Source of the DNA: a virus
Taxonomy: Duplodnaviria > Caudoviricetes
Length of the DNA: 32,089 nucleotides
Reading direction: 5' to 3' (one strand)
Virus record (IMG/VR): IMGVR_UViG_3300030397_001062
Location: 1 to 32,089 of that record
This document shows positions 2,016 through 28,347 of the stretch, one piece after another. The first letter of the stretch is position 1; each line of letters opens with the position of its first letter. The position numbers and the translations under genes are program-made. Under the pieces are notes generated by a model that had not been told where the DNA came from, did not search any database, and saw nothing but the letters and a program-made list of their open reading frames with translations.

Positions 2016-2433
2016 ACCAAAACCAAAGCGAAAGCGACCTCGTCACGGCACGATCAAGGTCAGCGGCAATCAGTTCGCGGCTGCCGATGAGGGCACGGAG
2101 CAAATCCTGATGGACCATGGCTTGCACGCTGATTCGGTGTTTTCCGGCGAGTTGATGAAATGCGTGATCTGCAATTGCCAGGAACAATCCGAGCCCGGTG
2201 TCGAGTCGCAATGGCGAGCGCTGACCGTTGACGGCAAGACCTGGTATGCCTGTCCGGACGAGTTCCCGCCCGATCGGGCGTCGCCCGAGAAATTCAAGAA
2301 CGCTTACCAGCGAGTCCTGATGGTGATTCAGTTCCAGCTGCAATTGCTGGATTTGACTCGCGAACAGGTCAAGGCGCTGCAGCTGCTGAAGAAGCCCGTT
2401 GACTGGAACGACGATTGGTGGGGGGAGAATTGA
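2002..2433 (+). CDS. Hypothetical protein, basic N-terminus, possible Zn-binding (CxxC...C)
   Basis: ATG 2002 after a purine-rich RBS; CVICNC and YACPDE motifs. Confidence 0.7.
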   Translation: MKRSKPKPKRKRPRHGTIKVSGNQFAAADEGTEQILMDHGLHADSVFSGELMKCVICNCQEQSEPGVESQWRALTVDGKTWYACPDEFPPDRASPEKFKNAYQRVLMVIQFQLQLLDLTREQVKALQLLKKPVDWNDDWWGEN

Positions 2434-2434
2434 T

Positions 2435-3769
2435 GTGCATGCTCTGCAATGGATTGAAAAGCATGGTCGTTATCGGCGCTTTGTCAAAGCGAACCAACTG
2501 CGCTACGCGCTGCAGCGTGAAAAGCGAACCTGTACCTGGTGTGGCAAGCCGGTCGGCAAGGGCCGTTCGAAATGGTGCAGCGACAAGTGCGTGGATGAAT
2601 ACCACGGCCGCATGGATCCACAGATCATTCGACGCCGTGTCGCCGAACGTGACCGCGGCGTCTGCGCGATGTGCGGTCACGATGCGACGGACTGGTCGCG
2701 AGAAATCGACATTCAATTGCGCACTTTCTATCTCCGGGTCTTCAATGTCCATCAATATGGTGGCTGCGATTGTCCGTGGTGCCAGTACCGCGATCGTCGC
2801 AAGTGGGAAGCGGATCATATCGTGCCTGTATGCGAGGGCGGCGGTTGCTGCACGATCGACAATTACCGCACGCTTTGCCTTACCTGTCACAAGGCGGAAT
2901 CAAAACGTCTCTCGCGGAGGCGTGCAATGATCGGCAAGGTTCACCACCAGGACGCCATCAAACTGATGCAGGAAATGCAGACGTGCGCGCTGAAGCCGGC
3001 TCTGCTGTTCGTCGATCCGCCGTTCAACATCGGCCGCGACTACGAAGGATACGACGACAAGAAGTCAAAGGCCGAGTTCGAGGACTTCATTGTCGATCTG
3101 TGCTGGCACGGTATCCGAACCATCGTCCCCGGCGGCATCTTCGCGATTCATTGTCCCGATGACATCGCCGCCCTGGTCCTGACACTCGAACACCACGAGG
3201 CATTGGACGAAGCTCGACGCGTGCACTGGATCAATTGGTATTACGGTTTCGGCCAGTGGACACGGTCAACGTTCATCCAGACTCGTTGTCATTTGCTGGT
3301 CTACACCAACACCGAGTTCAAACCGACCTTCAACGCCGACGACATCTTTATCGAAAGCCTGCGACGCAAGATTGGCGACCCTCGCGCCGTCGGACGCAAA
3401 GGCGACGATGGCCAATGGGAGGTTGAGCCCGCTGCGGACGAAGGCTGGGTCGTACCGGGCACTGTCTGGGGCATCGAGGACAACGACGGTCCGCATTGGG
3501 GCCGAGTCCAGGGGAACAACAACGAACGCTGGATCAAAAAGAACGGCGCGCTGGTCGATCACGACAACCAGTTGCCGGAGAACTATCTGGAACGAATCAT
3601 CCGCGCATGGACCAACCCGGGCGAACTGGTTTGCGATCCGTGCGGCGGGAGTGGCACAACGGCCGTCGTGGCCGAGGCCCTGCAACGACGCTGGATCACG
3701 GGGGACATTTCCAAAACGAACTGCGCCTCGATCCGGAGACGACTGAAGAAAGGAAGCGTAAGGCTATGA
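2435..3769 (+). CDS. HNH nuclease fused to a beta-class N6A/N4C DNA methyltransferase
   Basis: GTG 2435 after GGAG. HNH: RDRGVCAMC...WEADHIVP...GG...NYRTLCLTCH. MTase: motif IV DPPF precedes motif I DPCGGSGTT. In-frame ATG 2927 has its own GGAGG. Confidence 0.85.
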   Translation: MHALQWIEKHGRYRRFVKANQLRYALQREKRTCTWCGKPVGKGRSKWCSDKCVDEYHGRMDPQIIRRRVAERDRGVCAMCGHDATDWSREIDIQLRTFYLRVFNVHQYGGCDCPWCQYRDRRKWEADHIVPVCEGGGCCTIDNYRTLCLTCHKAESKRLSRRRAMIGKVHHQDAIKLMQEMQTCALKPALLFVDPPFNIGRDYEGYDDKKSKAEFEDFIVDLCWHGIRTIVPGGIFAIHCPDDIAALVLTLEHHEALDEARRVHWINWYYGFGQWTRSTFIQTRCHLLVYTNTEFKPTFNADDIFIESLRRKIGDPRAVGRKGDDGQWEVEPAADEGWVVPGTVWGIEDNDGPHWGRVQGNNNERWIKKNGALVDHDNQLPENYLERIIRAWTNPGELVCDPCGGSGTTAVVAEALQRRWITGDISKTNCASIRRRLKKGSVRL

Positions 3770-4320: not shown

Positions 4321-4876
4321 CAAACCCAAAATCAAAACCGTTGAAGAGAACCCGACTGGACTTCATCAACGGTACGTCTTGACGAAGGCCGACGGATCAC
4401 CGGTCGATGACGATGCAGTCTACTTCGTGTTGCGACTGGACAAGTACGGTGACGACCCTGACCACACCCAGTTCTGTCGTGATGCGGCGCGAGAGTATTG
4501 CAAACGCGTCAACAACCGCACTGACGACGAACATCCGTTGCGTTTGGTCGGCAATGAACTGTGGAACCTGCTGAACGACATTGAAGGTGGCAATGTATAT
4601 CGCCAAGCCGCCCAAGGTGTCGTTAAAGGAAAGGAAGTTGCGGGCGAGATCCTGAAAGCAATCGGCATGGAGGATCGACGGGTTACGAAGATTGAAATCC
4701 TGTTTGAAAAGGATATTCCAGTGACGATCGTTTGTCGCTACCAGGCAGGCCCTGAACAAGCCGATGCGATTGTCAACTTTGTGACCAAGCGTGATTGGGA
4801 AGAAGTCGAGGATCCACAGATTTCGCAGACGGACGCAGATTATGACGTTGCGGGAGGAAACGAGAACGGATCGTGA
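4313..4876 (+). CDS. Hypothetical phage protein
   Basis: GTG 4313 after GGAG; GLHQRY...YFVLRLD N-terminal domain; repeat-encoded DPQISQTDAD near the C-terminus. Confidence 0.7.
   Translation: MTSKPKIKTVEENPTGLHQRYVLTKADGSPVDDDAVYFVLRLDKYGDDPDHTQFCRDAAREYCKRVNNRTDDEHPLRLVGNELWNLLNDIEGGNVYRQAAQGVVKGKEVAGEILKAIGMEDRRVTKIEILFEKDIPVTIVCRYQAGPEQADAIVNFVTKRDWEEVEDPQISQTDADYDVAGGNENGS
4808..4842 (+). repeat. Dispersed CAGATT-triplet repeat, copy 3
   Basis: GAGGATCCACAGATTTCGCAGACGGACGCAGATTA, running directly into ATG 4842. Confidence 0.9.
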
Positions 4877-5087: not shown

Positions 5088-5960
5088 ATGGATCGACAAC
5101 TGACATTACATGGCGTCATGGATGAGGCCGAGGCGAAGGAACTTTGTTACGAGCAACGAATGGCGCGGTTGAAAGAGCTGTTGCCGGCCGTCGGCATCAA
5201 TCCCAACACGACTACGTGGAAACTGGCTGTGATGATTTGTTTCCTGCCCAAACGAACACTTGGCCCCGTCGACTGGCGGAACGAGGATCTGGCGGCCGAC
5301 GAATTCATGCGTCACGAAAACGGCAAGCCGCCAAAGGTCTCCACCATCCAGGCATCGCTGCGTCGACTTCGCAAACTGGGCATCGTGCGGCAGACCTGGG
5401 ACGGCCAGCGGCATCGGTCTGTACGGGAGATAAACCACCATAAGGTCGCGTTGCTTTGCGACCAGTTGAGGGTGGATTCCACGGTGGATTCCACGGTGGA
5501 TTCCACCGTGGAATCCACCGTGGATTTGAGGGTTGAAAATTCGCGCGCCATATATGTACCTCTAACCTCTGAACCTCTTAACCCGTTAACCAATGAACCC
5601 CCGGAGGTCGAGACAAGGAAGGATTCGGGGCAGGGGTTAAGGGGTGAAGATTTACCACCAAAGGCTGCACCGGTCGCCACGGAATTCTCGTTGCACCAGC
5701 AGGAGCATCAGCAACGAGTTTGGGCGCTCGAGCTATTGGCCACTCACGATCTCGGCTGGGTAAGTCGTCTCTCGAAAGTCGATCGCGAAATCATCGACGA
5801 GCTGGTTGCCAACTACTCCAGCGATTTGGTCGCCGAAGCCGTCAGCCAAAACAACCAACATCTGCATGACCGCCGCAAGGCCGGCACCCCGGTCAACTAT
5901 CCGATCTCCAACCTGCGTCGCATCGCCGAACGCCTTGACGACGAGGAGCGCGGACGATGA
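5088..5960 (+). CDS. Putative phage replication initiator (N-terminal wHTH, repeat linker)
   Basis: STIQASLRRLRKLGIV wHTH-like segment; central (VDST)n linker encoded by tandem repeats, a lambda O-like layout. Confidence 0.6.
   Translation: MDRQLTLHGVMDEAEAKELCYEQRMARLKELLPAVGINPNTTTWKLAVMICFLPKRTLGPVDWRNEDLAADEFMRHENGKPPKVSTIQASLRRLRKLGIVRQTWDGQRHRSVREINHHKVALLCDQLRVDSTVDSTVDSTVESTVDLRVENSRAIYVPLTSEPLNPLTNEPPEVETRKDSGQGLRGEDLPPKAAPVATEFSLHQQEHQQRVWALELLATHDLGWVSRLSKVDREIIDELVANYSSDLVAEAVSQNNQHLHDRRKAGTPVNYPISNLRRIAERLDDEERGR
5472..5526. repeat. 12-bp tandem palindromic repeats, putative origin iterons
   Basis: GTGGATTCCACG-type unit x4.5; 5478-5524 is a perfect inverted repeat with 23-bp arms around T5501. 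Confidence 0.85.
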
Positions 5961-11898: not shown

Positions 11899-11937
11899 GC
11901 GACACTGAGAAAAAGATAACCGAGCGGAGAAAAGATC

Positions 11938-12192
11938 ATGCAAGAAAACGAACAGGCCAAAGCCCTTCCGGTTGTTATGCGGCGCTGGTTGTTCCGTGGC
12001 GAAGATTGGAATGATGACGATTTCTACATTGACGAAAATGGAGCGGAAGTCTGCGAGGATGCAGCCGTGCCGTGGGTGGGTTCGGAGTTAGACGCAAAAG
12101 CGGAGGCCGATCGCCGCTGCGATTTGTGGGAAGAATCAAACGAAGCTTTTATCGCAAAAATCACAATCGAGTCGCGTGGTAAGGCCACATAA
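11938..12192 (+). CDS. Acidic hypothetical protein (cassette-like gene 1)
   Basis: GGAG RBS; stop codon lies within GCCACATAAG, complementary (8/10) to GTTATGCGGC near the gene start. Confidence 0.7.
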   Translation: MQENEQAKALPVVMRRWLFRGEDWNDDDFYIDENGAEVCEDAAVPWVGSELDAKAEADRRCDLWEESNEAFIAKITIESRGKAT

Positions 12193-12198
12193 GGCCGA

Positions 12199-12546
12199 GT
12201 GAAAATTATGAACGAAGAAAAGATTCAAGGAACAACAAGACCGCCCAAGCCGGCTCCCGTCCATCCGTTTGCTATCTGGATTTGGGAGTGGGGTTTCATT
12301 TCAGGTCTGTTTTCAATTGCGTTTGGGAGTGCGGCATATACTTGCGGATTGAAAACAACCATGATTCGATTTGAGGTTCTTGGATTGATACTCTGCTGGT
12401 TCGGGATGCGTGCATGGTGGAAAGCACCGGTGTTTGGCGATTTGAAAAATGATTCAATCAACATCCGCGCTGTAATCCTGCTGCTTTTCGCGTGGGTGTT
12501 GATTTGCGGAACGTGGTATTTGGTCGAAGGTGTTCAATCCAGATAA
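12199..12546 (+). CDS. 3-TM membrane protein (cassette-like gene 2)
   Basis: Hydrophobic segments; stop codon lies within AATCCAGATAAC, complementary (11/12) to GCTATCTGGATT at 12271. Confidence 0.7.
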   Translation: MKIMNEEKIQGTTRPPKPAPVHPFAIWIWEWGFISGLFSIAFGSAAYTCGLKTTMIRFEVLGLILCWFGMRAWWKAPVFGDLKNDSINIRAVILLLFAWVLICGTWYLVEGVQSR

Positions 12547-12606
12547 CGTCGTAGATGACCACGCCGTTCGTCTAATGTCTTCCCCAGCGGTAAATCTTGA
12601 AGGCAG

Positions 12607-12924
12607 GTGATGCCCAGTTGTGACGAAAATTTGCTGAAAGTGATCACGCTAACGGCCGATACGGTTTGGACGGTCGGTTTTGCCAAGTTGTGGTTGCGGC
12701 GCGGGGAACCAGTCAAGGTCGGCGTGTGTCATCCCGAGGAACTGGGGGTGTGTCGCAGCAAGCATGACTGTCATGAAGAATCACAGGAGAAGCGAATTCT
12801 ATTGAAGAGCGACGAAAAACTGATCGTCGGCGCCATCGACATCTGGCTTCATGATTCCCACAAACCGGTCAGTTTGGTATTATGCTACCGGGGTGATCAG
12901 CCGATCACCAAACAGACAATTTGA
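12607..12924 (+). CDS. Hypothetical protein
   Basis: 105-aa ORF in the right orientation; its 3' end overlaps a predicted promoter. Confidence 0.4.
   Translation: MMPSCDENLLKVITLTADTVWTVGFAKLWLRRGEPVKVGVCHPEELGVCRSKHDCHEESQEKRILLKSDEKLIVGAIDIWLHDSHKPVSLVLCYRGDQPITKQTI
12855..12883 (+). promoter_or_regulatory. Putative sigma70-type promoter
   Basis: TTCCCA-17 bp-TATTAT with TG extended -10. Confidence 0.5.
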
Positions 12925-12950: not shown

Positions 12951-13002
12951 AAGGCCACCCGACGCATCGTTGTTGCGAACGATTCGTCGGGTGGCCTTTT
13001 TT
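12951..13002 (+). terminator. Long intrinsic terminator hairpin
   Basis: AAGGCCACCCGACG/CGTCGGGTGGCCTT stem plus inner ATCGTT/AACGAT, ending in T6. Confidence 0.85.
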
Positions 13003-13928: not shown

Positions 13929-14891
13929 ATGTCGACAACGATTATCACAAGTCGAAACGACGAGCGGCGGTTCGGGATCCCGGATGACTGGGTGCCGCCG
14001 TTGCCGGGCGCGGCCATCATGACGGCCAATGTTCCGCCGATCTGGTCGATCGACGAACGTTTTCCGAAAATCTGGGAACAGGGCATCACCGGAAAGGAGG
14101 TGCGTGTTTCGGTGCACGACACGGCCGCCGGCAAAACCCATCCCAATCTTCCGAACCCGGTGTTCACTCGCAACCTTGCCGGCGGTTCCAACGGTGATCC
14201 ACATGGACACGGAACTCATTGTGCCGGCACGGTGCTCGGCCGCGACGGTGTTGGTTGCGCGCCCGAAGCGGACCTGATGCTGATCAAGGTACTGAGTGAT
14301 CGTGGCGGTGGGTCATCAACCGACATCAACGAAGCCCGTCGCATCGCAGCTGCCGAAGGTGCCGACGTTCTTTCGGAATCGTTGGGCGGTGCGATGGGTG
14401 GCGAGTCCGATCGTCAGTCGATCGTGCGTGCCTATGAGAACGGCGTTTTGCTGGATGTCGCTGCGGCCGGCAACGCTGGCTACAACGGTCGCAACACGAT
14501 CGGTTATCCAGGGCGCTGGCTGGAGACGTGGTGTATCGGCGCCTACAACCGCAACGGCCGAATCTCCGGCTTCTCATCCGGCGGACGCGAAATCGATTGC
14601 GCCTGTCCTGGTGAACAGATCGTCTCGTGCCGCACCGGTGGCGGATTCACCACAATGTCCGGAACCTCGATGGCCACGCCATGGTGGGCGGGTTTCATGG
14701 CGCTGGTTATTCACAAGCGTCGCATTCTTGGCTGGAACGATTTAATCGGAGCCGAGGCATGGCGAAGGTTCTTTGATCAGCAGGGATTCTGGCGTGACGC
14801 CGGCGAGCCAGGCAAGGACGTTCGCTACGGTCGAGGCATTCCCAACATCGACGCAATTCTGGATTGGCTGGTCGAGCCCCTGTACGTGTAA
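13929..14891 (+). CDS. Subtilisin-like S8 serine protease
   Basis: Catalytic Asp VSVHDT, His HGHGTHCAG, oxyanion Asn AAAGN, Ser SGTSMATP; no signal peptide. Confidence 0.95.
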   Translation: MSTTIITSRNDERRFGIPDDWVPPLPGAAIMTANVPPIWSIDERFPKIWEQGITGKEVRVSVHDTAAGKTHPNLPNPVFTRNLAGGSNGDPHGHGTHCAGTVLGRDGVGCAPEADLMLIKVLSDRGGGSSTDINEARRIAAAEGADVLSESLGGAMGGESDRQSIVRAYENGVLLDVAAAGNAGYNGRNTIGYPGRWLETWCIGAYNRNGRISGFSSGGREIDCACPGEQIVSCRTGGGFTTMSGTSMATPWWAGFMALVIHKRRILGWNDLIGAEAWRRFFDQQGFWRDAGEPGKDVRYGRGIPNIDAILDWLVEPLYV

Positions 14892-14919
14892 ACGTGTGAA
14901 CAAAGGACGCTGAAGGAAA

Positions 14920-15762
14920 ATGAACAAGATCTTATTACTGGCGGGTTTCCTGGGTGCCTTTTTCGTTGCACCGCTGTTTGGTCAGGAGGCATACAAGGTT
15001 GATGTCACTGCCGGCACCGCCAAAGTCGTTATCGAGAAGTTACTGGTCGTTGATGAAACGACACTACGCGCCGAAACCACGGACGGTGGTGAAGTACCGA
15101 TCTTTCTGACCACCACGGACCGCCCCAACCCCCTTGTGCGGGCGTGGGAGCTGGAAGGCCGCTACGCGTTGTGGCCACCAAAGGTCATGCCACTACTTCG
15201 CGAAGGCGTCTGGGTGTTGGAAGGTCCGCCTGGTTCGCGGTGGTCGATCGAAGTGGTGGGCGGTGGCAGTTGGGAAACCGAAGAAGTTCAGTTCCCCGGC
15301 GCGCCGGCGCCTGATCGTGATGGTGATGGAGTACCAGACGCCGACGACAACTGTCCCGACACCGCCAATCCCGACCAGCTGGATTCAGACGGTGATGGAG
15401 TTGGTGACGTATGTGATTCTGTCGAACCGCCGCCTCCCGCTGGTGACTGGGACGAGCTTACCAAACTGGTTCAGGACTCGGACATTCCCGAGCAGGATCC
15501 AGGCACAGCAACTGCCTTGCGGAACGCTTACGAAACCGCGATCCGCCAAATCAAGGAGAACACACAATGGTCGATCGGGCTGGCGCTCGAGGCCATTCGC
15601 ACGCAGCGACGCAGCGCGTTTAATTCGCGACCGAAACCCATGAAAACGAACTGGGCTCCCTTGTTGGACGAAATGGGATCGTTCATCGCCGAACGGGAAC
15701 CGACTAACCCGCAGACGGAGCTGGTTCCGGCTCTGGACGCCATCGTGAAAGGATTGCAATGA
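14920..15762 (+). CDS. Exported protein with thrombospondin type-3 Ca-binding repeats
   Basis: Signal peptide MNKILLLAGFLGAFFVAPLFG; DRDGDGVPDADDNCPDTANPDQLDSDGDGVGDVCD. Confidence 0.85.
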   Translation: MNKILLLAGFLGAFFVAPLFGQEAYKVDVTAGTAKVVIEKLLVVDETTLRAETTDGGEVPIFLTTTDRPNPLVRAWELEGRYALWPPKVMPLLREGVWVLEGPPGSRWSIEVVGGGSWETEEVQFPGAPAPDRDGDGVPDADDNCPDTANPDQLDSDGDGVGDVCDSVEPPPPAGDWDELTKLVQDSDIPEQDPGTATALRNAYETAIRQIKENTQWSIGLALEAIRTQRRSAFNSRPKPMKTNWAPLLDEMGSFIAEREPTNPQTELVPALDAIVKGLQ

Positions 15763-16415
15763 AAAGCAAACGCAAAATCAAAAGCCTCGCATCAAAACTA
15801 CTAGGACTGTCACTGGTCGTGGCCCTGTTTGCCGTGCCGGCCATGGCGGCCGACCCGGTTGAAAAGGAAGACTATCTGGCAGCGTTCACTGACGTCGATG
15901 ACTCGAATGATTGGCTGCCGATGCTTGACCTGAGCACCACTGCCCGGGTGCAACAATGCTATATCGATGCAAACGGAAATCGGGTTTGCACTTCACCGCC
16001 AACAACCGTGCAGGAATTCATCATGGAGGAATACGCTGCACCGGAGCGGCAGCGAAACATTAGACGCGTTTACGCCGTTGCTCCCATGGACGACTGGATT
16101 ACCAGGCATCTGGCCGGCCTGGATGGAACGGACAACCACTCCTATTCGCTTGAGTACCTTGCCACGCTGACAACTTCCCAGAAGTGGGCCATCCATAACC
16201 GGGATCATGCCGGTGCGATGAACAGCAGTTTCGCACCGAACAACTTCACGATGTACAGCAACGGCGGCCATTTCACGACGCTGGGTGGCGGCATGGTTTA
16301 TTCCGGAACCACCGGACGCGTCTACAACCGATTCGGGCGGGCCATTCTGTTCGATGGCCAGGGCTGGTGGCCGCTGAAAGCCCTCGGCCGGTCCCAACCC
16401 ATGTGGAGGCGTTAG
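15759..16415 (+). CDS. Exported hypothetical protein
   Basis: Basic n-region, hydrophobic core, AMA cleavage site; ATGA coupling. Confidence 0.75.
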   Translation: MKSKRKIKSLASKLLGLSLVVALFAVPAMAADPVEKEDYLAAFTDVDDSNDWLPMLDLSTTARVQQCYIDANGNRVCTSPPTTVQEFIMEEYAAPERQRNIRRVYAVAPMDDWITRHLAGLDGTDNHSYSLEYLATLTTSQKWAIHNRDHAGAMNSSFAPNNFTMYSNGGHFTTLGGGMVYSGTTGRVYNRFGRAILFDGQGWWPLKALGRSQPMWRR

Positions 16416-16425
16416 CCAGCGACCG

Positions 16426-16902
16426 ATGCTTGAGCTGTTTAACTGGTTCCCGAATGCCCTTTGCCCGCTGGAATGTCTGACGGGCCATGGACAGGATTCG
16501 CAAGCGGCCTCGTGGACAACGTGGGGGGCGACGCTGACGGTAGGAATCCTGTACTGCATCATTCTTTGGCGATGGTGGATTATCTTCAACAGTTCGCCGA
16601 TGCAGCGGGCCCTGATGGGCATCTTTTTGTTATGCGCCATCTGCGGTTACTGGATGTTCAACCTGTCGTTCTTCAACGCACCCCTGGCCTATTCGATTCG
16701 TTTAATTGGCCTGTTTGGGTTGATCTTTTTCTGCGTCAAGTTCATCCGTTCCACGCTCCACGTGCGGCTGGAGGTTCATCGCGAAATGCAAAGCCTTCAG
16801 CAACTGCAACACCGCGCGATGTCGGTCAAGAATCTCAAAAAGCAGATTCGTCTCCAGGAGGAAATGAGACGCCACAAGGAAGAACTGGAGAGCCTGATTT
16901 GA
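16426..16902 (+). CDS. 3-TM membrane protein
   Basis: Three hydrophobic segments including IFLLCAICGY; C-terminal coiled coil. Confidence 0.65.
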   Translation: MLELFNWFPNALCPLECLTGHGQDSQAASWTTWGATLTVGILYCIILWRWWIIFNSSPMQRALMGIFLLCAICGYWMFNLSFFNAPLAYSIRLIGLFGLIFFCVKFIRSTLHVRLEVHREMQSLQQLQHRAMSVKNLKKQIRLQEEMRRHKEELESLI

Positions 16903-17432
16903 ACCAGATTGAAGGTATCGGTGACTGGATCGGCAAATACGGCCTGCCGATTGTCGTATGCAGTGTATTGATCCTGTTCGGCGTCTACGTGCTGGTAAAG
17001 ATCATTGGACCCGAACTAAAAGCACGAAGCCAGTTGAAGATCAAACGTCAGGAGGCAGAAGAAGAACGAAAGACACGACTTGCCGAGGCGGAACTGGACC
17101 ACCAATTGCAAATGAACAAATTGCAGGAGGAAAACCAGCGGTCATCACTGGAGCTGACCAAGGTGACCAAAAAGGCCGTCGAGGCGATTCAGGTTAGTCA
17201 GCGGCAAACCGTCGACGCGATTCAGCTTAGTCAGCGGCAGATTACCGATCCGCTTCACAGGCTGATCCAGCAACACCGCGACTACCGCGCCGGGTGGCAG
17301 TTCGAAACGGTCACGTTGAAGCGGGCAATCAAGGAAGCTGCCAACTATTTGGAACAAAACGGAACCCTGTCGAAAGAGCAGTCGCAAAAGATACAGGCGA
17401 CACTTGACGAAGGGCTCGATAACACGGAGTAA
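16899..17432 (+). CDS. Single-TM coiled-coil protein
   Basis: TTGA coupling after GGAG; TM YGLPIVVCSVLILFGVYVLV; internal 33-bp duplication at 17178-17240. Confidence 0.7.
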   Translation: MNQIEGIGDWIGKYGLPIVVCSVLILFGVYVLVKIIGPELKARSQLKIKRQEAEEERKTRLAEAELDHQLQMNKLQEENQRSSLELTKVTKKAVEAIQVSQRQTVDAIQLSQRQITDPLHRLIQQHRDYRAGWQFETVTLKRAIKEAANYLEQNGTLSKEQSQKIQATLDEGLDNTE

Positions 17433-17440
17433 AGACCATT

Positions 17441-18769
17441 ATGTTCGGTAACGCATTGAAAGCAATGATTTTTGCGTTGGCAACGGCATGCGCCTTTTCA
17501 TACCACCATCACGACCACGACGATTGTTGCGGTTCAGATCGATGCGGCTGGACGGAAATCACGTTGCAACAGCATCGCGACGATTCGAACGCCGCCGCGA
17601 ACGTGGTTCACAACTATCAGGTGCTGGAGCAAACTGAAAGCGCGGACGTGCTGTATGTGCCCAGTGACACCACACTGATTGCCGCGGGCAAAACGTGGAC
17701 CTATACGGGCAACGAACATTTTGCCGTCATCATGGGCGAACGGTCCCGGATCATGGGTGGCCAGTTCAATGTCGTCGCCTCGCGTAACGGCATTCGCATG
17801 AACGACCAGACAGAAATGGCGGGCGTTTCGGTCATCGGGGATCGGTTCGAAACCAACTCGGTGGTCAAAACGTACGGGGACGCCGTTTTACGACATTGCC
17901 AATTCCTTGGCGGCAAGAATTATGCAGTCGATGTTCAAAAGGGTGAGTGCCTGATCGAGTTCCCGGTATTTCTGGATTACAACCACCACGGGGTATCTTC
18001 ATCGGAAAAGGCCGAAAGCGTTATCGTTCGGTACTTTCGTTTCGCTGGATCCGATAGCGAAGATGGCTCGGCATTCCGTAACGCCTGCAGGAACCTTGTT
18101 GCAGAACATGGTGTTGTCAGTGGCGCAGCCCTGTTGAAACAAACGGGGCCAGAGGCCAGTTCGGTTTTCACCAACGTCACATCCCGCACCACGCGCCGTA
18201 CGCCATCGATTACGTGTGGTGGCAAATCCACTACGTTTCTCAATTGCGACATTCAGGGAGGCGTCTGGGCTCATGCCGGCGACGTTAAATTCATCGAAAC
18301 GAAGTTTGACGGCGAGACCGGAATCATCTACTTGCGTGACAAGCTGGTCAGCATGTTATTCGATCGGGCGGACTTCGGAGACCGCGCCGAGTGGGCGCTG
18401 CAAAACCACAAAACAAAAACAACTGATATTGAAGTGGTGATCAAGGACAGCCGCAACATCCCGACGCAGATTTTCCGCCGCGAATGGCCTGACGTTAACT
18501 ACAAGTTGCTGGGCGTTAATCACTTTGCCGACGGAACCGTTAAGGTCGAGATTCCTGGAATCGGCTTGCCGTTGACGAACGATTCATCAGCCATGGCCGC
18601 GTCTGGTCAACCGCTTCAATCTGTGATGGTCAAGCAGTGGTCGTTCGGTCCGTCTTTCGATCCGGAAACGATTCAACAGTTCGCCGAGTCGAGGGGACTG
18701 AACGTTAAGGCGATTGAACCGCATCCCGGTTACCCGGGCGATTGGTTGATGCACTATACGGATGATTAA
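17441..18769 (+). CDS. Exported protein, probable right-handed beta-helix (pectin-lyase-like)
   Basis: Signal-like N-terminus, HHHDHDDCC segment, then repeated short beta strands with G/N turns. Confidence 0.55.
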   Translation: MFGNALKAMIFALATACAFSYHHHDHDDCCGSDRCGWTEITLQQHRDDSNAAANVVHNYQVLEQTESADVLYVPSDTTLIAAGKTWTYTGNEHFAVIMGERSRIMGGQFNVVASRNGIRMNDQTEMAGVSVIGDRFETNSVVKTYGDAVLRHCQFLGGKNYAVDVQKGECLIEFPVFLDYNHHGVSSSEKAESVIVRYFRFAGSDSEDGSAFRNACRNLVAEHGVVSGAALLKQTGPEASSVFTNVTSRTTRRTPSITCGGKSTTFLNCDIQGGVWAHAGDVKFIETKFDGETGIIYLRDKLVSMLFDRADFGDRAEWALQNHKTKTTDIEVVIKDSRNIPTQIFRREWPDVNYKLLGVNHFADGTVKVEIPGIGLPLTNDSSAMAASGQPLQSVMVKQWSFGPSFDPETIQQFAESRGLNVKAIEPHPGYPGDWLMHYTDD

Positions 18770-18772
18770 AAC

Positions 18773-19426
18773 ATGCCGTGGGCTCTTGGGTTTGACGGCG
18801 CCTCAGACGATGTCAACTGCGGTGCCGATTCCAGTATTGACGACATCTTCTTCGAAACCGGGGGAGGCCGGATTGATGCGTGGATAACGCCCTACAGCGA
18901 CGGTGAAAACGACAATGGTGTCATTGCGTTCAAGTCAAATTGGTTTTTTCGCGTCCAATCGGAATCCAGTGGCAAGGTCGAACTGGAGTTTTGGCATTTC
19001 CGGGCCAGTAACCGAATGCGTTTCAGGACGACAAACGCCGTCGTGCCGATTGATACGCTGTCGCTGGTTTCAGCAACCTACGATGCCAACTCGCCGGGGA
19101 CCGTCGGCAAACTGTATCTGAACAATGTCGAGCAAACCGTCACGACAGTTACAACCGGATCGGGAGCGGCGGAAAGCGATGTTGGCGAAGATCTGATTTT
19201 CGGAAACAACGCAGCGCTATCGCGATGCTTCGATGGTTTGATTCACGAAATTGACATTGGTGTCGAACAGTGGCTGATTGACGAGGGCACCGGGACGACA
19301 ACCGCCGCCGAGGTTGAAAGCCCGGCTAACGATGGATCGATCACCGGTGCGGTTTGGGTCAATACCACCGTGCCAAGGGGAGCCGCCAGATTAGTGCAAA
19401 GGGGTCCATTCGGTGCCTTCCATTAG
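18773..19426 (+). CDS. LamG/concanavalin-like domain protein
   Basis: ALGFDGASDDV, IDAWI, VSATYD, KLYLNN, FDGLIHEI, DEGTGTT, NDGSITGAVW. Confidence 0.85.
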   Translation: MPWALGFDGASDDVNCGADSSIDDIFFETGGGRIDAWITPYSDGENDNGVIAFKSNWFFRVQSESSGKVELEFWHFRASNRMRFRTTNAVVPIDTLSLVSATYDANSPGTVGKLYLNNVEQTVTTVTTGSGAAESDVGEDLIFGNNAALSRCFDGLIHEIDIGVEQWLIDEGTGTTTAAEVESPANDGSITGAVWVNTTVPRGAARLVQRGPFGAFH

Positions 19427-19715
19427 CTACGACACAAGTTACCAAACCGTCAGGGTGTTCCACCCCATGACTCCGATGATCCCGACAGTCGTTGATATCC
19501 CATTGGTGACTGGATGGGAAATATCGGTTGGTGTATTGCCACTGGGAATTGTGATTGACGCCTTGACGGGGATCATCGCAGGAATCCCTCGCGTTATCGA
19601 ACAACAGGAAGTTGTCGTAAAAGCCTCATACGGGCTTTCCGACTATGAGGAATTTTCCATGACCATCGACGTATCCGATAAACCCACTTCAGGCGGGGCT
19701 CAATTCAATGGCTGA
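19413..19715 (+). CDS. Putative Ig (He_PIG-like) domain protein
   Basis: LPLGIVIDALTGIIAGIP motif. Confidence 0.65.
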   Translation: MPSISYDTSYQTVRVFHPMTPMIPTVVDIPLVTGWEISVGVLPLGIVIDALTGIIAGIPRVIEQQEVVVKASYGLSDYEEFSMTIDVSDKPTSGGAQFNG

Positions 19716-24774: not shown

Positions 24775-26631
24775 ATGCAAAACAATTTTTCTGTGAAGCC
24801 GGGCCCCGGTCGTTACGCCATGGCGTCGGCTCCACCGGTCGAGATCCTTTCTCCGATCGGCAACGACATCTACAAGCGTCAACACAACGGGTTCGCCATG
24901 ATCCCGTTCGGCAACAATTGTTTTCCTTCCATGGAAAAGAATGCCGTGCCGGTTACTCAATACTCCGTGCTGGGCATTCCGCCGTTCTGGCGAGCCACCA
25001 ACATCCTTTGCGGATTCCTTGGACGGATCCCGGTGGAACTAAAGCGGAAACGCCGCGGCAAGAAGTCGACGGTCGAAACAGGTGACGGTCGTCATTTCCT
25101 GATGTGCAAGAAACCGCATGCCAACTTGCGCGCACGTACATGGAAGCAGACGATGGGCTTGCACTATCAGGTTGCTCCGTCAGGTGCCTTCTCGGAAATC
25201 ATTCGCGACCCCGACACGAATGAACCGGAAGCCATCCTGCCGCTGGATCCCAATCGGGTGGCGTGGGGCGTCGAGGTCGATGCCAACAATCGACCCAAAC
25301 GAATGATCTACCTGTACATCGAACAGGATTTCTTTGGCGTGCCGTTGGGTCCGCCACGCATTATCGACCCGGCCAACATGCTGCACTTCAAAGGTCTGTC
25401 GTACGACGCCGTGATGGGAATCGACAAGATCGATTTGCTGCAACGCAAATTCGGATTGATGCTGGCCCGCACCGAGTATCAACGCAAGTACTACATCGGC
25501 AACGCGCGAATCCGCGGTTTTATCATGGTGCCGCCTGGTATGCAGGAGGTGTTCGGCACGATGATGGAAGTTATCTCTGAGCACATGGCCGCACAGGACA
25601 TGGATCCACTGAAGGCGATTCCGCTTTTTGACAATGCCAAGTTCGAGCGTGCCGACGACACGCCCGAAGATCAACAGTTGATCGAGGCCATGAAGACCGA
25701 CCCGGACACCTGCGGTGTCATCACGGGCGTTCCAGGATTCCTGCTGGGTGCCGACACTCGCGACAGTTACAAGTCGCTGGAGAAAGTCATGTCGTCATTC
25801 TTCACAACAACGGTTCACGACCAGTTCAACGAGTTTGAATCGGAAATGGACGACAAGATGTTGACCGAGGAAGAATTGCGAACCGACGAGCTGGGTTTTC
25901 GATTCGACCGCGGCGAGCTGATGGCCACTGACGTCGCCTCTTTCCACACAATGTTGATCGAGGACCTGCACGGCGGATTGATTGCGTGGGAAGAAGCCCG
26001 CGAAGCGATCGACCGTCACACTGATTCAAGCGATGGCACTTTCTTTGTGCCGCAAAACATCGTGGGCGCCGACCCGACTGACATCACCGGTTTGTCTCAG
26101 GGCAATGGCGATGACAAGGCCACACGGAAGGGGACGGGAGTCAATTGTGCGAAGCACCCCTCCGGGGCCGTCCCGGCAATTGACTCCCGTCCCCGTGATG
26201 CCGCCAACAACTGGGTCGCCGTTTACAACCTGACCGAGTCGACCGTGCGACGTGTCTGCGAACGAATCAGCAACACGGCCGCGAGGGCTTCCAAAAGTGC
26301 GGAGAAGTTTGAGTCGTTTCTGGACCAATTGGTGGAAGATAGCCGGGAACCGAAGCTCGAACAGGAAAACCTGCGCCCGGTTTATGACATCGCGAGAGGA
26401 TTCGGGATGCTGGACCATTTGCCAGGCACCCGGGTTTGCAATGTGTTTTACGATCGCTTGAAAGCGACCGCCGAACACTTGATGACCAAAGACCCCGACC
26501 ACTTCAGAAAACAAGTCGCCACGATTTGTGACGACACATCGAAGGAACTGCTGGTGCAGATTCCCGAACTTGTAACCGGGCACTGCGGTGCCGACGACGA
26601 TAAGGAGACCGATCATGGCGACGACGATTGA
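24775..26631 (+). CDS. HK97-family portal protein with C-terminal extension
   Basis: Position after terL; LPLDPNRV, MLHFKG, GVPGFLLG, EARE motifs. Confidence 0.9.
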   Translation: MQNNFSVKPGPGRYAMASAPPVEILSPIGNDIYKRQHNGFAMIPFGNNCFPSMEKNAVPVTQYSVLGIPPFWRATNILCGFLGRIPVELKRKRRGKKSTVETGDGRHFLMCKKPHANLRARTWKQTMGLHYQVAPSGAFSEIIRDPDTNEPEAILPLDPNRVAWGVEVDANNRPKRMIYLYIEQDFFGVPLGPPRIIDPANMLHFKGLSYDAVMGIDKIDLLQRKFGLMLARTEYQRKYYIGNARIRGFIMVPPGMQEVFGTMMEVISEHMAAQDMDPLKAIPLFDNAKFERADDTPEDQQLIEAMKTDPDTCGVITGVPGFLLGADTRDSYKSLEKVMSSFFTTTVHDQFNEFESEMDDKMLTEEELRTDELGFRFDRGELMATDVASFHTMLIEDLHGGLIAWEEAREAIDRHTDSSDGTFFVPQNIVGADPTDITGLSQGNGDDKATRKGTGVNCAKHPSGAVPAIDSRPRDAANNWVAVYNLTESTVRRVCERISNTAARASKSAEKFESFLDQLVEDSREPKLEQENLRPVYDIARGFGMLDHLPGTRVCNVFYDRLKATAEHLMTKDPDHFRKQVATICDDTSKELLVQIPELVTGHCGADDDKETDHGDDD

Positions 26632-28319: not shown

Positions 28320-28347
28320 TCTGCGTTCATCTGCGCAATCTGTGGAT
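28320..28347 (-). repeat. Inverted, diverged copy of the CAGATT-triplet repeat
   Basis: Reverse complement reads ATCCACAGATTGCGCAGATGAACGCAGA. Confidence 0.85.

Follow-up and report, generated by a model that had tools for sequence, protein, structure and literature searches.

Why should two consecutive genes of a phage each end inside a motif complementary to a site near its own start, and does this arrangement derive from integron gene cassettes? We addressed this question in a tailed-phage fragment of 32 kb (from a linear virus record with an estimated completeness of 34%), which was analyzed over its whole length of 32,089 nt, hereafter called the window. The original prediction, made from the sequence alone, held that the phage had captured cassettes and domesticated their attC sites as translation starts. 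All six motifs behind this prediction were recovered in place. The complementarity between stop region and 5' region was reproduced (11/12 in gene 2 and 8/10 in gene 1), the TAA stops lie inside the motifs (12190-12192 in gene 1, 12544-12546 in gene 2) and the putative starts, ATG 11938 and ATG 12208, lie in frame upstream of the cores, 12 and 21 codons 5' of them. The core at 12271, however, is GCT and not GTT, and that at 12191 is AAG and not AAC. A 6-nt spacer separates AAC from GATGAC, one of 5 nt separates GTCCATC from GCT, and GATGAC and GTCCATC pair at 6/6 positions, leaving one extra C. The proposed L boxes are thus sound in spacing and pairing, but they belong to two different sites and not to a single shared one.

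The weight of these matches differs between the two genes. When the stop region of each gene was compared with the first 100 nt, the 11/12 match of gene 2 was the best of 43 window genes (next 8/12) and was equalled by one of 1,806 cross-gene pairs. The 8/10 match of gene 1 was equalled by four of the 43 genes and by 65 of the 1,806 pairs (six if the match has to begin with GTT), and this motif pair is consequently weak when taken alone. Complementary R boxes flanking one ORF, as in a cassette, are present around both genes, at 11/12 and 8/10. The window contains no match to Rfam.

The N-terminal leader of gene 2 (M...PAPVHPFAIW) resembles that of P0002, a relative of gene 1 with 67% identity that starts M...PAPVESIVIRRRW, and this likeness suggested that an attC arm is translated. 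In bacterial genomes, a scan for the motif yielded at least 135 loci, of which at least 103 among those listed are Planctomycetota by record title. An alignment and a covariance model were built from 98 of 152 extracted sites, all bacterial and 91-101 nt long with flanks, most Rubripirellula duplicates being excluded from the family alignment; as part of the search pattern came from the window itself, testing was repeated on 101 non-redundant sites free of the pattern. The hairpin of this family covaries, with pairing in 94.6% of cells, a value reached by none of 500 shuffles. Its sites form tandem arrays with a member every few hundred bases (276 matches in 66 loci), and in five of eight loci a match to the integron integrase (TIGR02249) lies within 1.5 kb of them. 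When translated, the family arm reads APVHxxV(I/R)R, as in gene 2 and P0002.

The segment 12246-12281 matches this family. In the profile made from the 101 pattern-free sites it scores 22.5 bits, which is rank 1 of 64,108 positions and within the training range, and this score was matched by one of 200 shuffled windows. Significant similarity to a bona fide attC family is found also with nhmmer at 12233-12278 (E 8.4e-4 and 8.3e-5; 14.4 bits for the arm, vs 9.5 for the best of 60 shuffles), while a pattern-derived profile limited to its pattern-free columns places the same arm in the top 8e-5. At the protein level, the gene 2 leader obtains the top score among 42 window proteins (22.3 bits); a leader-like score at ORF 8678 (3.5 bits) was rejected, as no attC features are present there. 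Judged by sequence, then, 12246-12281 is to be identified as half of an attC site of the Planctomycetota integron family, in line with the anticipated similarity to planctomycete integrons, and our data support the view that the motifs derive from attC sites of this type. The features that follow from this identification are collected in table 1.

Table 1. Features of the cassette-derived locus and packaging-related genes of the window (positions in nt; a single number is the position at which the gene or match is listed).
Feature	Position	Strand	Description or basis
Site 0, decayed attC of gene 1	11915..11980	-	Proposed from register pairing
Gene 1, 84 aa	11938..12192	+	12-residue leader, probably attC-derived, fused to ~70-aa acidic domain
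Site 1, attC of gene 2	12187..12277	-	83 nt, AAG to GCT
Gene 2, 112 aa	12208..12546	+	21-residue attC-derived leader and hydrophobic body
Site 1, R''-L'' arm, well preserved	12250..12277	-	Translated as PAPVHPFAI in gene 2
Site 2, R'-L' arm only	12541..12566	-	Intact core AAC 12545-12547 containing gene 2 stop
Next ORF, 105 aa	12607..12924	+	Would be third cassette; no family
Terminase large subunit	22870		Pfam/PHROGs
Portal	24775		Pfam/PHROGs
Head protease	26588		Pfam/PHROGs
Major-head match, weak	28641		Pfam/PHROGs

The orientation of the sites can be deduced from three observations. In the folded bottom strand of attC, as described in the part of the work of Nivina et al. (2016, PMC5027507) covered here, the R' box (RYYYAAC) lies on the 5' arm and the R'' box with the extrahelical bases on the 3' arm, the outermost extrahelical base being a conserved T, with a 6-bp stem between. 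The plus strand of the window has this layout at site 1 (T 12255, six bases, C 12262). In bacterial arrays, moreover, 131 of 158 cassettes (89 of the 101 unambiguous ones) have their longest ORF on the opposite strand, and IntI is found downstream on the model strand, as expected for an array pointing away from it. Since unpaired bases, bacterial ORF direction and IntI position agree, the plus strand of the window is the attC bottom strand, with both genes antisense to their cassettes and the cassettes pointing leftwards. The typical, even if not obligatory, location of cassette ORFs on the attC top strand is not found here, both ORFs being on the bottom strand. This result reverses the labelling and direction of the cores in the original prediction: the motifs at the stops represent R', the crossover core, in reverse complement, and those near the 5' ends represent R''. 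The canonical crossover is thus located at the stops, and each putative start ATG within the loop of its own attC. What survives of the proposed capture and domestication is the attC origin, together with the placement of starts and leaders inside the sites; the direction, and the idea of an array, do not.

Site 1 combines a preserved arm with a ruined one. From AAG 12191 to GCT 12273 it measures exactly 83 nt, the modal length of the family (83 nt in 38 of 101 sites) and well inside the 57-141 bp of attC sites in general. Its R''-L'' arm contains a stem, the unpaired T 12255, a 6-bp stem, the unpaired C 12262, a 5-nt spacer and the core GCTATCT, in which GTT is altered to GCT. The R' core at 12187-12193, which contains the stop of gene 1, is also mutated, so that both conserved triplets of the site are broken; its L' arm is unrecognisable and pairing between its own arms is lost (1/6 in the L box, 0/8 in the stems). 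The putative start ATG 12208 lies in the loop, a GTG at 12199 being an alternative. Site 2 retains the opposite arm, in which the core is followed by a 6-nt spacer and the L' box GATGAC (12554-12559), the arm forming the 11/12 complement of 12271-12282. This arm (12539) takes rank 1 and 2 of ~64,100 positions in two profiles, scores that were matched by 191 of 200 shuffles; no partner arm was found for it downstream, and neither the covariance model nor the half-site profiles detect attC features at the ends of the next ORF. A 34-nt hairpin at 12541-12574 (z -2.7, minus strand) was considered as a mini-attC and rejected for its length, which is below 57 bp, and its lack of L pairing.

None of the three sites folds on the bottom strand into the hairpin of a functional attC. 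Their minimum free energies are -3.9 (site 1), -4.9 and -6.7 kcal/mol, vs -11.7 to -30.1 kcal/mol in the family, and sites 0 and 1 fold no better than shuffled sequences (z 0.05 to 1.74). The triplets of a functional site are likewise missing, site 0 having only GTT, site 2 only AAC and site 1 the altered pair, and L'/L'' pairing is absent at site 0, which has no L'' box, as it is at site 1. The covariance model built here calls no complete attC: among 21 matches at E<=10 the best (0.18) is unrelated, and the three sites obtain E values of 0.96, 1.7 and 6.7. Hence the expected CALIN call, which takes at least two clustered attC sites, was not obtained with this model. A CALIN also lacks a nearby integron integrase, and here the original prediction was right, for none is found in the window by Pfam and PHROGs on 48 ORFs or by PF00589 in six frames, in a record that is only 34% complete; with no tyrosine recombinase in the window, the locus is not a complete integron either. 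Because no complete attC is called and none folds, the locus is a relic, neither an array nor a callable CALIN.

This bears on the idea that the locus is a working CALIN with cassettes that a host integrase could excise. The core and L' box of site 2 are indeed intact, and five of six tested phage attC sites recombine with IntI1 according to the part of PMC9892861 covered. Yet no site of the window has both arms, and with the folding energies just given, the two mutated triplets of site 1 and the missing L'' box of site 0, excision of the units at present appears unlikely and we find this reading scarcely credible. The arms flanking gene 2 raise another possibility, namely that the gene is one circular cassette opened in the attC loop, in which case 12250-12277 and 12541-12566 would be the halves of a single attC. 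These arms do pair with each other, the L box at 6/6, the outer stem at 4/5 and the sequence around the core at 11/12, and the own arms of site 1 fail to do so. The inner stem nevertheless pairs at 0/3, a failure seen in none of 283 well-paired own-arm sites that pass the other two tests, and neighbouring sites of bacterial arrays pair as well as these arms in 23 of 164 cases; moreover, site 1 has the exact modal length and the L' box of site 0 lies upstream of its gene, as in an ordinary array. We thus regard the opening of a circular cassette as very unlikely.

Site 0 can be recognised in the register of the family. An L'-box-like GATAAC at 11915-11920, accompanied by a stem, pairs in this register with the arm 5' of 11974; then follow the RBS-like GGAGAA at 11926-11931, the putative start ATG 11938 in the loop, an unpaired T at 11967 and the R'' core GTTATGC at 11974-11980. 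(Pairing register and length led us to take 11914-11920 as an L' box, its reading as a core being rejected.) The R' core is unrecognisable, and the L'' box is missing together with its spacer, a gap of 9 nt or three codons; with these 9 nt restored the site would be ~80 nt long. Two sequences retain the missing part. P0002 has three extra residues (ESI) at the position of the gap, and a 248-nt contig of one metagenome run (X1 record 2) carries the 9 nt absent from site 0, its sequence past the position equivalent to 11974 running through an L'' box complementary to GATAAC and a spacer of 5 nt into a GTT core. Since P0002 keeps the residues and the contig keeps the nucleotides, site 0 probably lost its L'' box through an in-frame deletion. 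Taken individually, site 0 does not stand out: it has an E value of 0.96 in the covariance model, and its core (11966), rank 5 of 64,142, is matched by 199 of 200 shuffles. Sites 0 and 2, which taken by themselves stay within the shuffle range, count only via position and pairing.

That P0002 and the X1 contig independently yielded the predicted 9 nt also argues against the notion that chance motif matches in ordinary phage genes account for the locus, as do the statistics of the half-site, the exact 83-nt spacing and the 11/12 match. Although the covariance model makes no call, Rfam has no match and 8/10 matches are common, we consider chance the least probable of all the readings discussed here, and for gene 2 it is largely refuted.

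The proteins themselves provide further information on the leaders. Gene 1 has no Pfam or PHROG family, and the ESM Atlas gives no family name for the product of either gene; the gene 1 domain, with the motif RRW...EADRRxDLWE...ESxG, belongs to an unnamed family, in which 110 proteins were collected at E<=0.001. Homology in this family starts directly after the GTT core in most members, and in 68 of 102 members the native N-terminus is short, with no more than 12 residues ahead of the W-x-F motif. From these alignments, the body of gene 1 is evidently a stand-alone domain that occurs with different leaders or none. The body of gene 2 is probably a membrane protein, to judge from its sequence; no relatives of it were found, and a locus scan of viral contigs was also empty. 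The search for related gene 1 loci gave little more: its sole locus in viral contigs (L001) is spurious, the scan of viral contigs with alignment A1 retrieved no locus, the two loci obtained with the same alignment in metagenomes (L002 and L003) are unrelated, and a pattern for the exact leader matched no viral stretch. One gene 1 relative, in L184, ends in an inverted, attC-like hairpin of 65 nt with an AAC/GTT core, which was equalled by one of 500 shuffles but reaches a covariance-model E of only 0.068.

Several results go against the reading as a remnant of inverted cassettes. Besides the missing covariance-model call and the weakness of sites 0 and 2 on their own, neither gene was found in 401 Planctomycetota genomes. 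Only four of the 109 other members of the gene 1 family have a leader that scores clearly or weakly in register (P0002, P0022, P0006 and P0086), and only four of 95 have an attC-like tail. Furthermore, the same leader is found before different bodies, which is unexpected under bottom-strand cassette exchange, because such exchange would move leader and body together; this mismatch leans toward swaps at the 5' G|TT. It could be that the 5' G|TT cores are working crossovers, with the leader fixed as a landing pad and the bodies swapped behind it, whether the top strand recombines (R''), the dead site is targeted as double-stranded GWT or microhomology mediates the exchange. Two contigs speak for such swaps. 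X1 record 2 (248 nt, depth 5.9) follows 11921-11974 with five differences and one gap and then continues into a different body, while X2 record 7 (550 nt, depth 12 vs 232) agrees with the window over 11955-11984, a stretch that spans the deletion junction, and departs from it thereafter. The original prediction that genes are swapped exactly at the G|TT positions thus receives weak support, as the two contigs diverge at, and 10 nt past, the core of gene 1, although no run branches at 12271. The gene 1 domain, beginning right after the core and accompanied by different leaders or none, fits the same scheme, and R'' recombination giving insertion in the opposite orientation has been described in the portion of PMC5027507 covered.

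Integrases, however, favour the bottom strand, and the scheme depends on two contigs of a single study, the possible source of the window DNA, in which chimeras may occur. In X2, contig junctions number about 8 over 16 kb, so that a junction this near would arise by chance with a rough probability of ~1.6%; the comparison covered 30 letters past each X1 or X2 junction, and X1 and X3 have no branch at 11984. The possibility of chimeras comes from one loose contig end, which resembles an amplification primer. The exchange of bodies at the 5' GTT core thus amounts to a weak hint, and as an explanation of the locus we hold it to be distinctly unlikely. A wider form of the idea, that phages invert attC sites, retain the half with ribosome site and leader as a fixed in-frame landing pad and exchange bodies at the dead R'' G|TT, appears doubtful.

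Arrays of the same attC family are present in viral contigs, and here the sites are intact. Of the 25 viral loci retrieved, four repeat earlier contigs; the model confirmed seven of the other 21, on six contigs, and the rest was treated as chance. The intact phage versions carry the leader M...PAPV(H/E)xxV, and their ORFs lie on the bottom strand, as do those of the window: 21 viral spacers gave nine bottom-strand, no top-strand and 12 ambiguous cases, so that bottom-strand ORFs account for 9 of 9 unambiguous phage cassettes vs 12 of 101 bacterial ones (Fisher p 6e-8). Among viral sites 5 of 25, against 9 of 277 among bacterial ones (p 0.003), contain an ATG in the loop that is in the frame of the core and open for at least 50 codons; the viral sample is small and pattern-selected, and two of its five in-loop starts belong to half-sites like those of the window. 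A ribosome-site motif is also present in four of these viral and three of these bacterial sites. Examples of such in-loop starts are MNKQNKPSSPAPVHRLV in L008 and MNNENNAIPAPVERLD in L168. No integron integrase exceeds the cut-off in the 10 viral records of this kind, two of which are 95% and 100% complete, and weak matches to generic recombinases appear in two of the 10. The intact arrays extend over L168:1781-4083, L008:43-1875, L164:316-1273 and L176:500-1560, with four to seven inverted attC sites each. Many of their ORFs extend into the site that follows. In L008 and L164, a related methyltransferase-like gene lies between different sites. These arrays suit tests of the crossover point better than the window does.

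As to the surroundings of the relic, genes 1 and 2 sit among small plus-strand ORFs 3' of a 5'-nucleotidase gene (11210), in a run that ends at a hairpin with a 21-bp stem (12951-12998; 95% paired, 6-nt loop, followed by a T-rich stretch). This hairpin is likely to be a terminator; it is absent from the output of the terminator scan, and the promoter and terminator scan of the window stayed at chance level. The window sequence is present in three aquatic metagenome runs of one study (X1, X2 and X3), and no RNA dataset is among the runs listed for its record. Given their position, both genes may be considered accessory genes. The type of attC suggests a host among Planctomycetota. This host assignment is tentative, as the terminase has matches of only 22-27% among 10 listed phages, and 201 Planctomycetota genomes contain no match to it at E<=1e-40. 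A blastn comparison of 11900-12640 with 50,697 phages yielded 16 short matches (E 0.2-0.8), none of them meaningful.

The window also has other repeats and domains of interest. GCAGATT-like repeat units occur at 663-714, 1023-1074, 1558-1580 and 4809-4860, with a reverse copy at 28320-28347, and three copies end in AGGAG directly 5' of small genes. In all three runs the contig graph branches at 4808-4842, where one loose end leads to a further copy 5' of a gene absent from the window; the element is possibly a second modular gene-start or shuffling element. A 60-bp tandem repeat (three units, 97-100% alike) occupies 3-184 within the ORF at the contig start, an array of 12-bp units that is also a long palindrome (23-nt arms, 100%) lies at 5471-5537 inside ORF 5088-5960, and a perfect 18-bp inverted repeat at 26130-26194 inside the portal gene is the best, non-significant match of the covariance model. 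ORF 2399-3769 joins an HNH domain and an N6/N4 DNA methyltransferase in one frame, and the region 5' of the packaging genes (13929-19715) encodes a subtilase, a TSP3-repeat protein, a laminin-G protein and an Ig-domain protein.

Altogether, we observed an attC family with a covarying hairpin, a half-site in the window that matches it (12246-12281), the strand on which the sites lie, their loss of folding and intact look-alikes in other phages. These observations lead us to conclude, with a probability of about 0.7, that 11915-12566 contains three broken attC sites of Planctomycetota type, the dead remnant of an inverted array whose R''-L'' arms have been kept as leaders. A host integron integrase may have introduced the cassettes in trans, by recombination of attC with attC or of attC with a secondary GWT site, and their backward insertion would have placed each gene on the transcribed strand of the phage. 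Read from the bottom strand, the purine-rich loop could then provide a ribosome site and an ATG in frame with the core, and with the start supplied by the loop no integron promoter would be needed. Subsequently, the non-coding R'-L' arms would be lost by drift or deletion, and the reading frame would preserve the coding arm, admitting changes such as the 9-nt in-frame deletion of site 0 and a change from a Val to an Ala codon in site 1. The genes would end locked in as ordinary accessory genes, their R''-L'' arms likely persisting as translated N-terminal leaders of 12-21 residues.

CALINs are already known in phages, 17 having been reported in 10,705 genomes, with five of six sites recombining (Qi et al. 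2023, PMC9892861). The relic shares with them small genes bounded by attC sites, a tailed phage and no nearby integrase; phage CALINs, however, have complete sites that are called by IntegronFinder/HattCI, whereas the window has no complete site, and the main text of that study, as far as covered, does not describe antisense genes or starts within attC, both of which appear in the window. The relic also resembles the sedentary Planctomycetota integrons (Pirellulaceae-type, 82-85 bp) in box sequences, spacers, unpaired bases and length. In those cassettes, by contrast, the ORF mostly has the direction of the attC top strand (89 of 101), and starts in the loop are rare (9 of 277), while the window has its ORFs on the opposite strand with in-loop starts. 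For bacterial genomes, the sections covered of Loot et al. (10.1101/2022.09.11.507474) propose that cassettes can insert at GWT targets away from integrons and become domesticated once the folded attC is deleted. The attG insertions and SALINs described there are similar in route of entry and domestication, but in the window half of each site is kept and is apparently coding. Insertion at R'' is a known route to a backward cassette; in the part of Nivina et al. (2016, PMC5027507) covered, it silences the gene relative to Pc, whereas the phage genes are backward with respect to their own attC and lie on the coding strand. We found no published description of inverted phage cassettes with starts inside attC in the searched listings of openly accessible papers, and the passages searched in PMC8876359 and PMC4889954 do not describe them.

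The window likely represents a late stage in the fixation of cassette genes by a phage, in which the hairpin is lost and half of it becomes protein. Since such relics are invisible to the covariance model built here, screens of this kind are likely to undercount phage genes that derive from cassettes, and the translated leader APV[HED]xxV offers a handle for finding them, while the type of attC gives a hint of the host (Planctomycetota) of an uncultured phage. If bodies were swapped at the 5' core, phages would present an exception to the bottom-strand rule of integron recombination, and if the leader were a landing pad, a dead integron site would serve as a module for gene fusion and expression that needs no integrase encoded by the phage.
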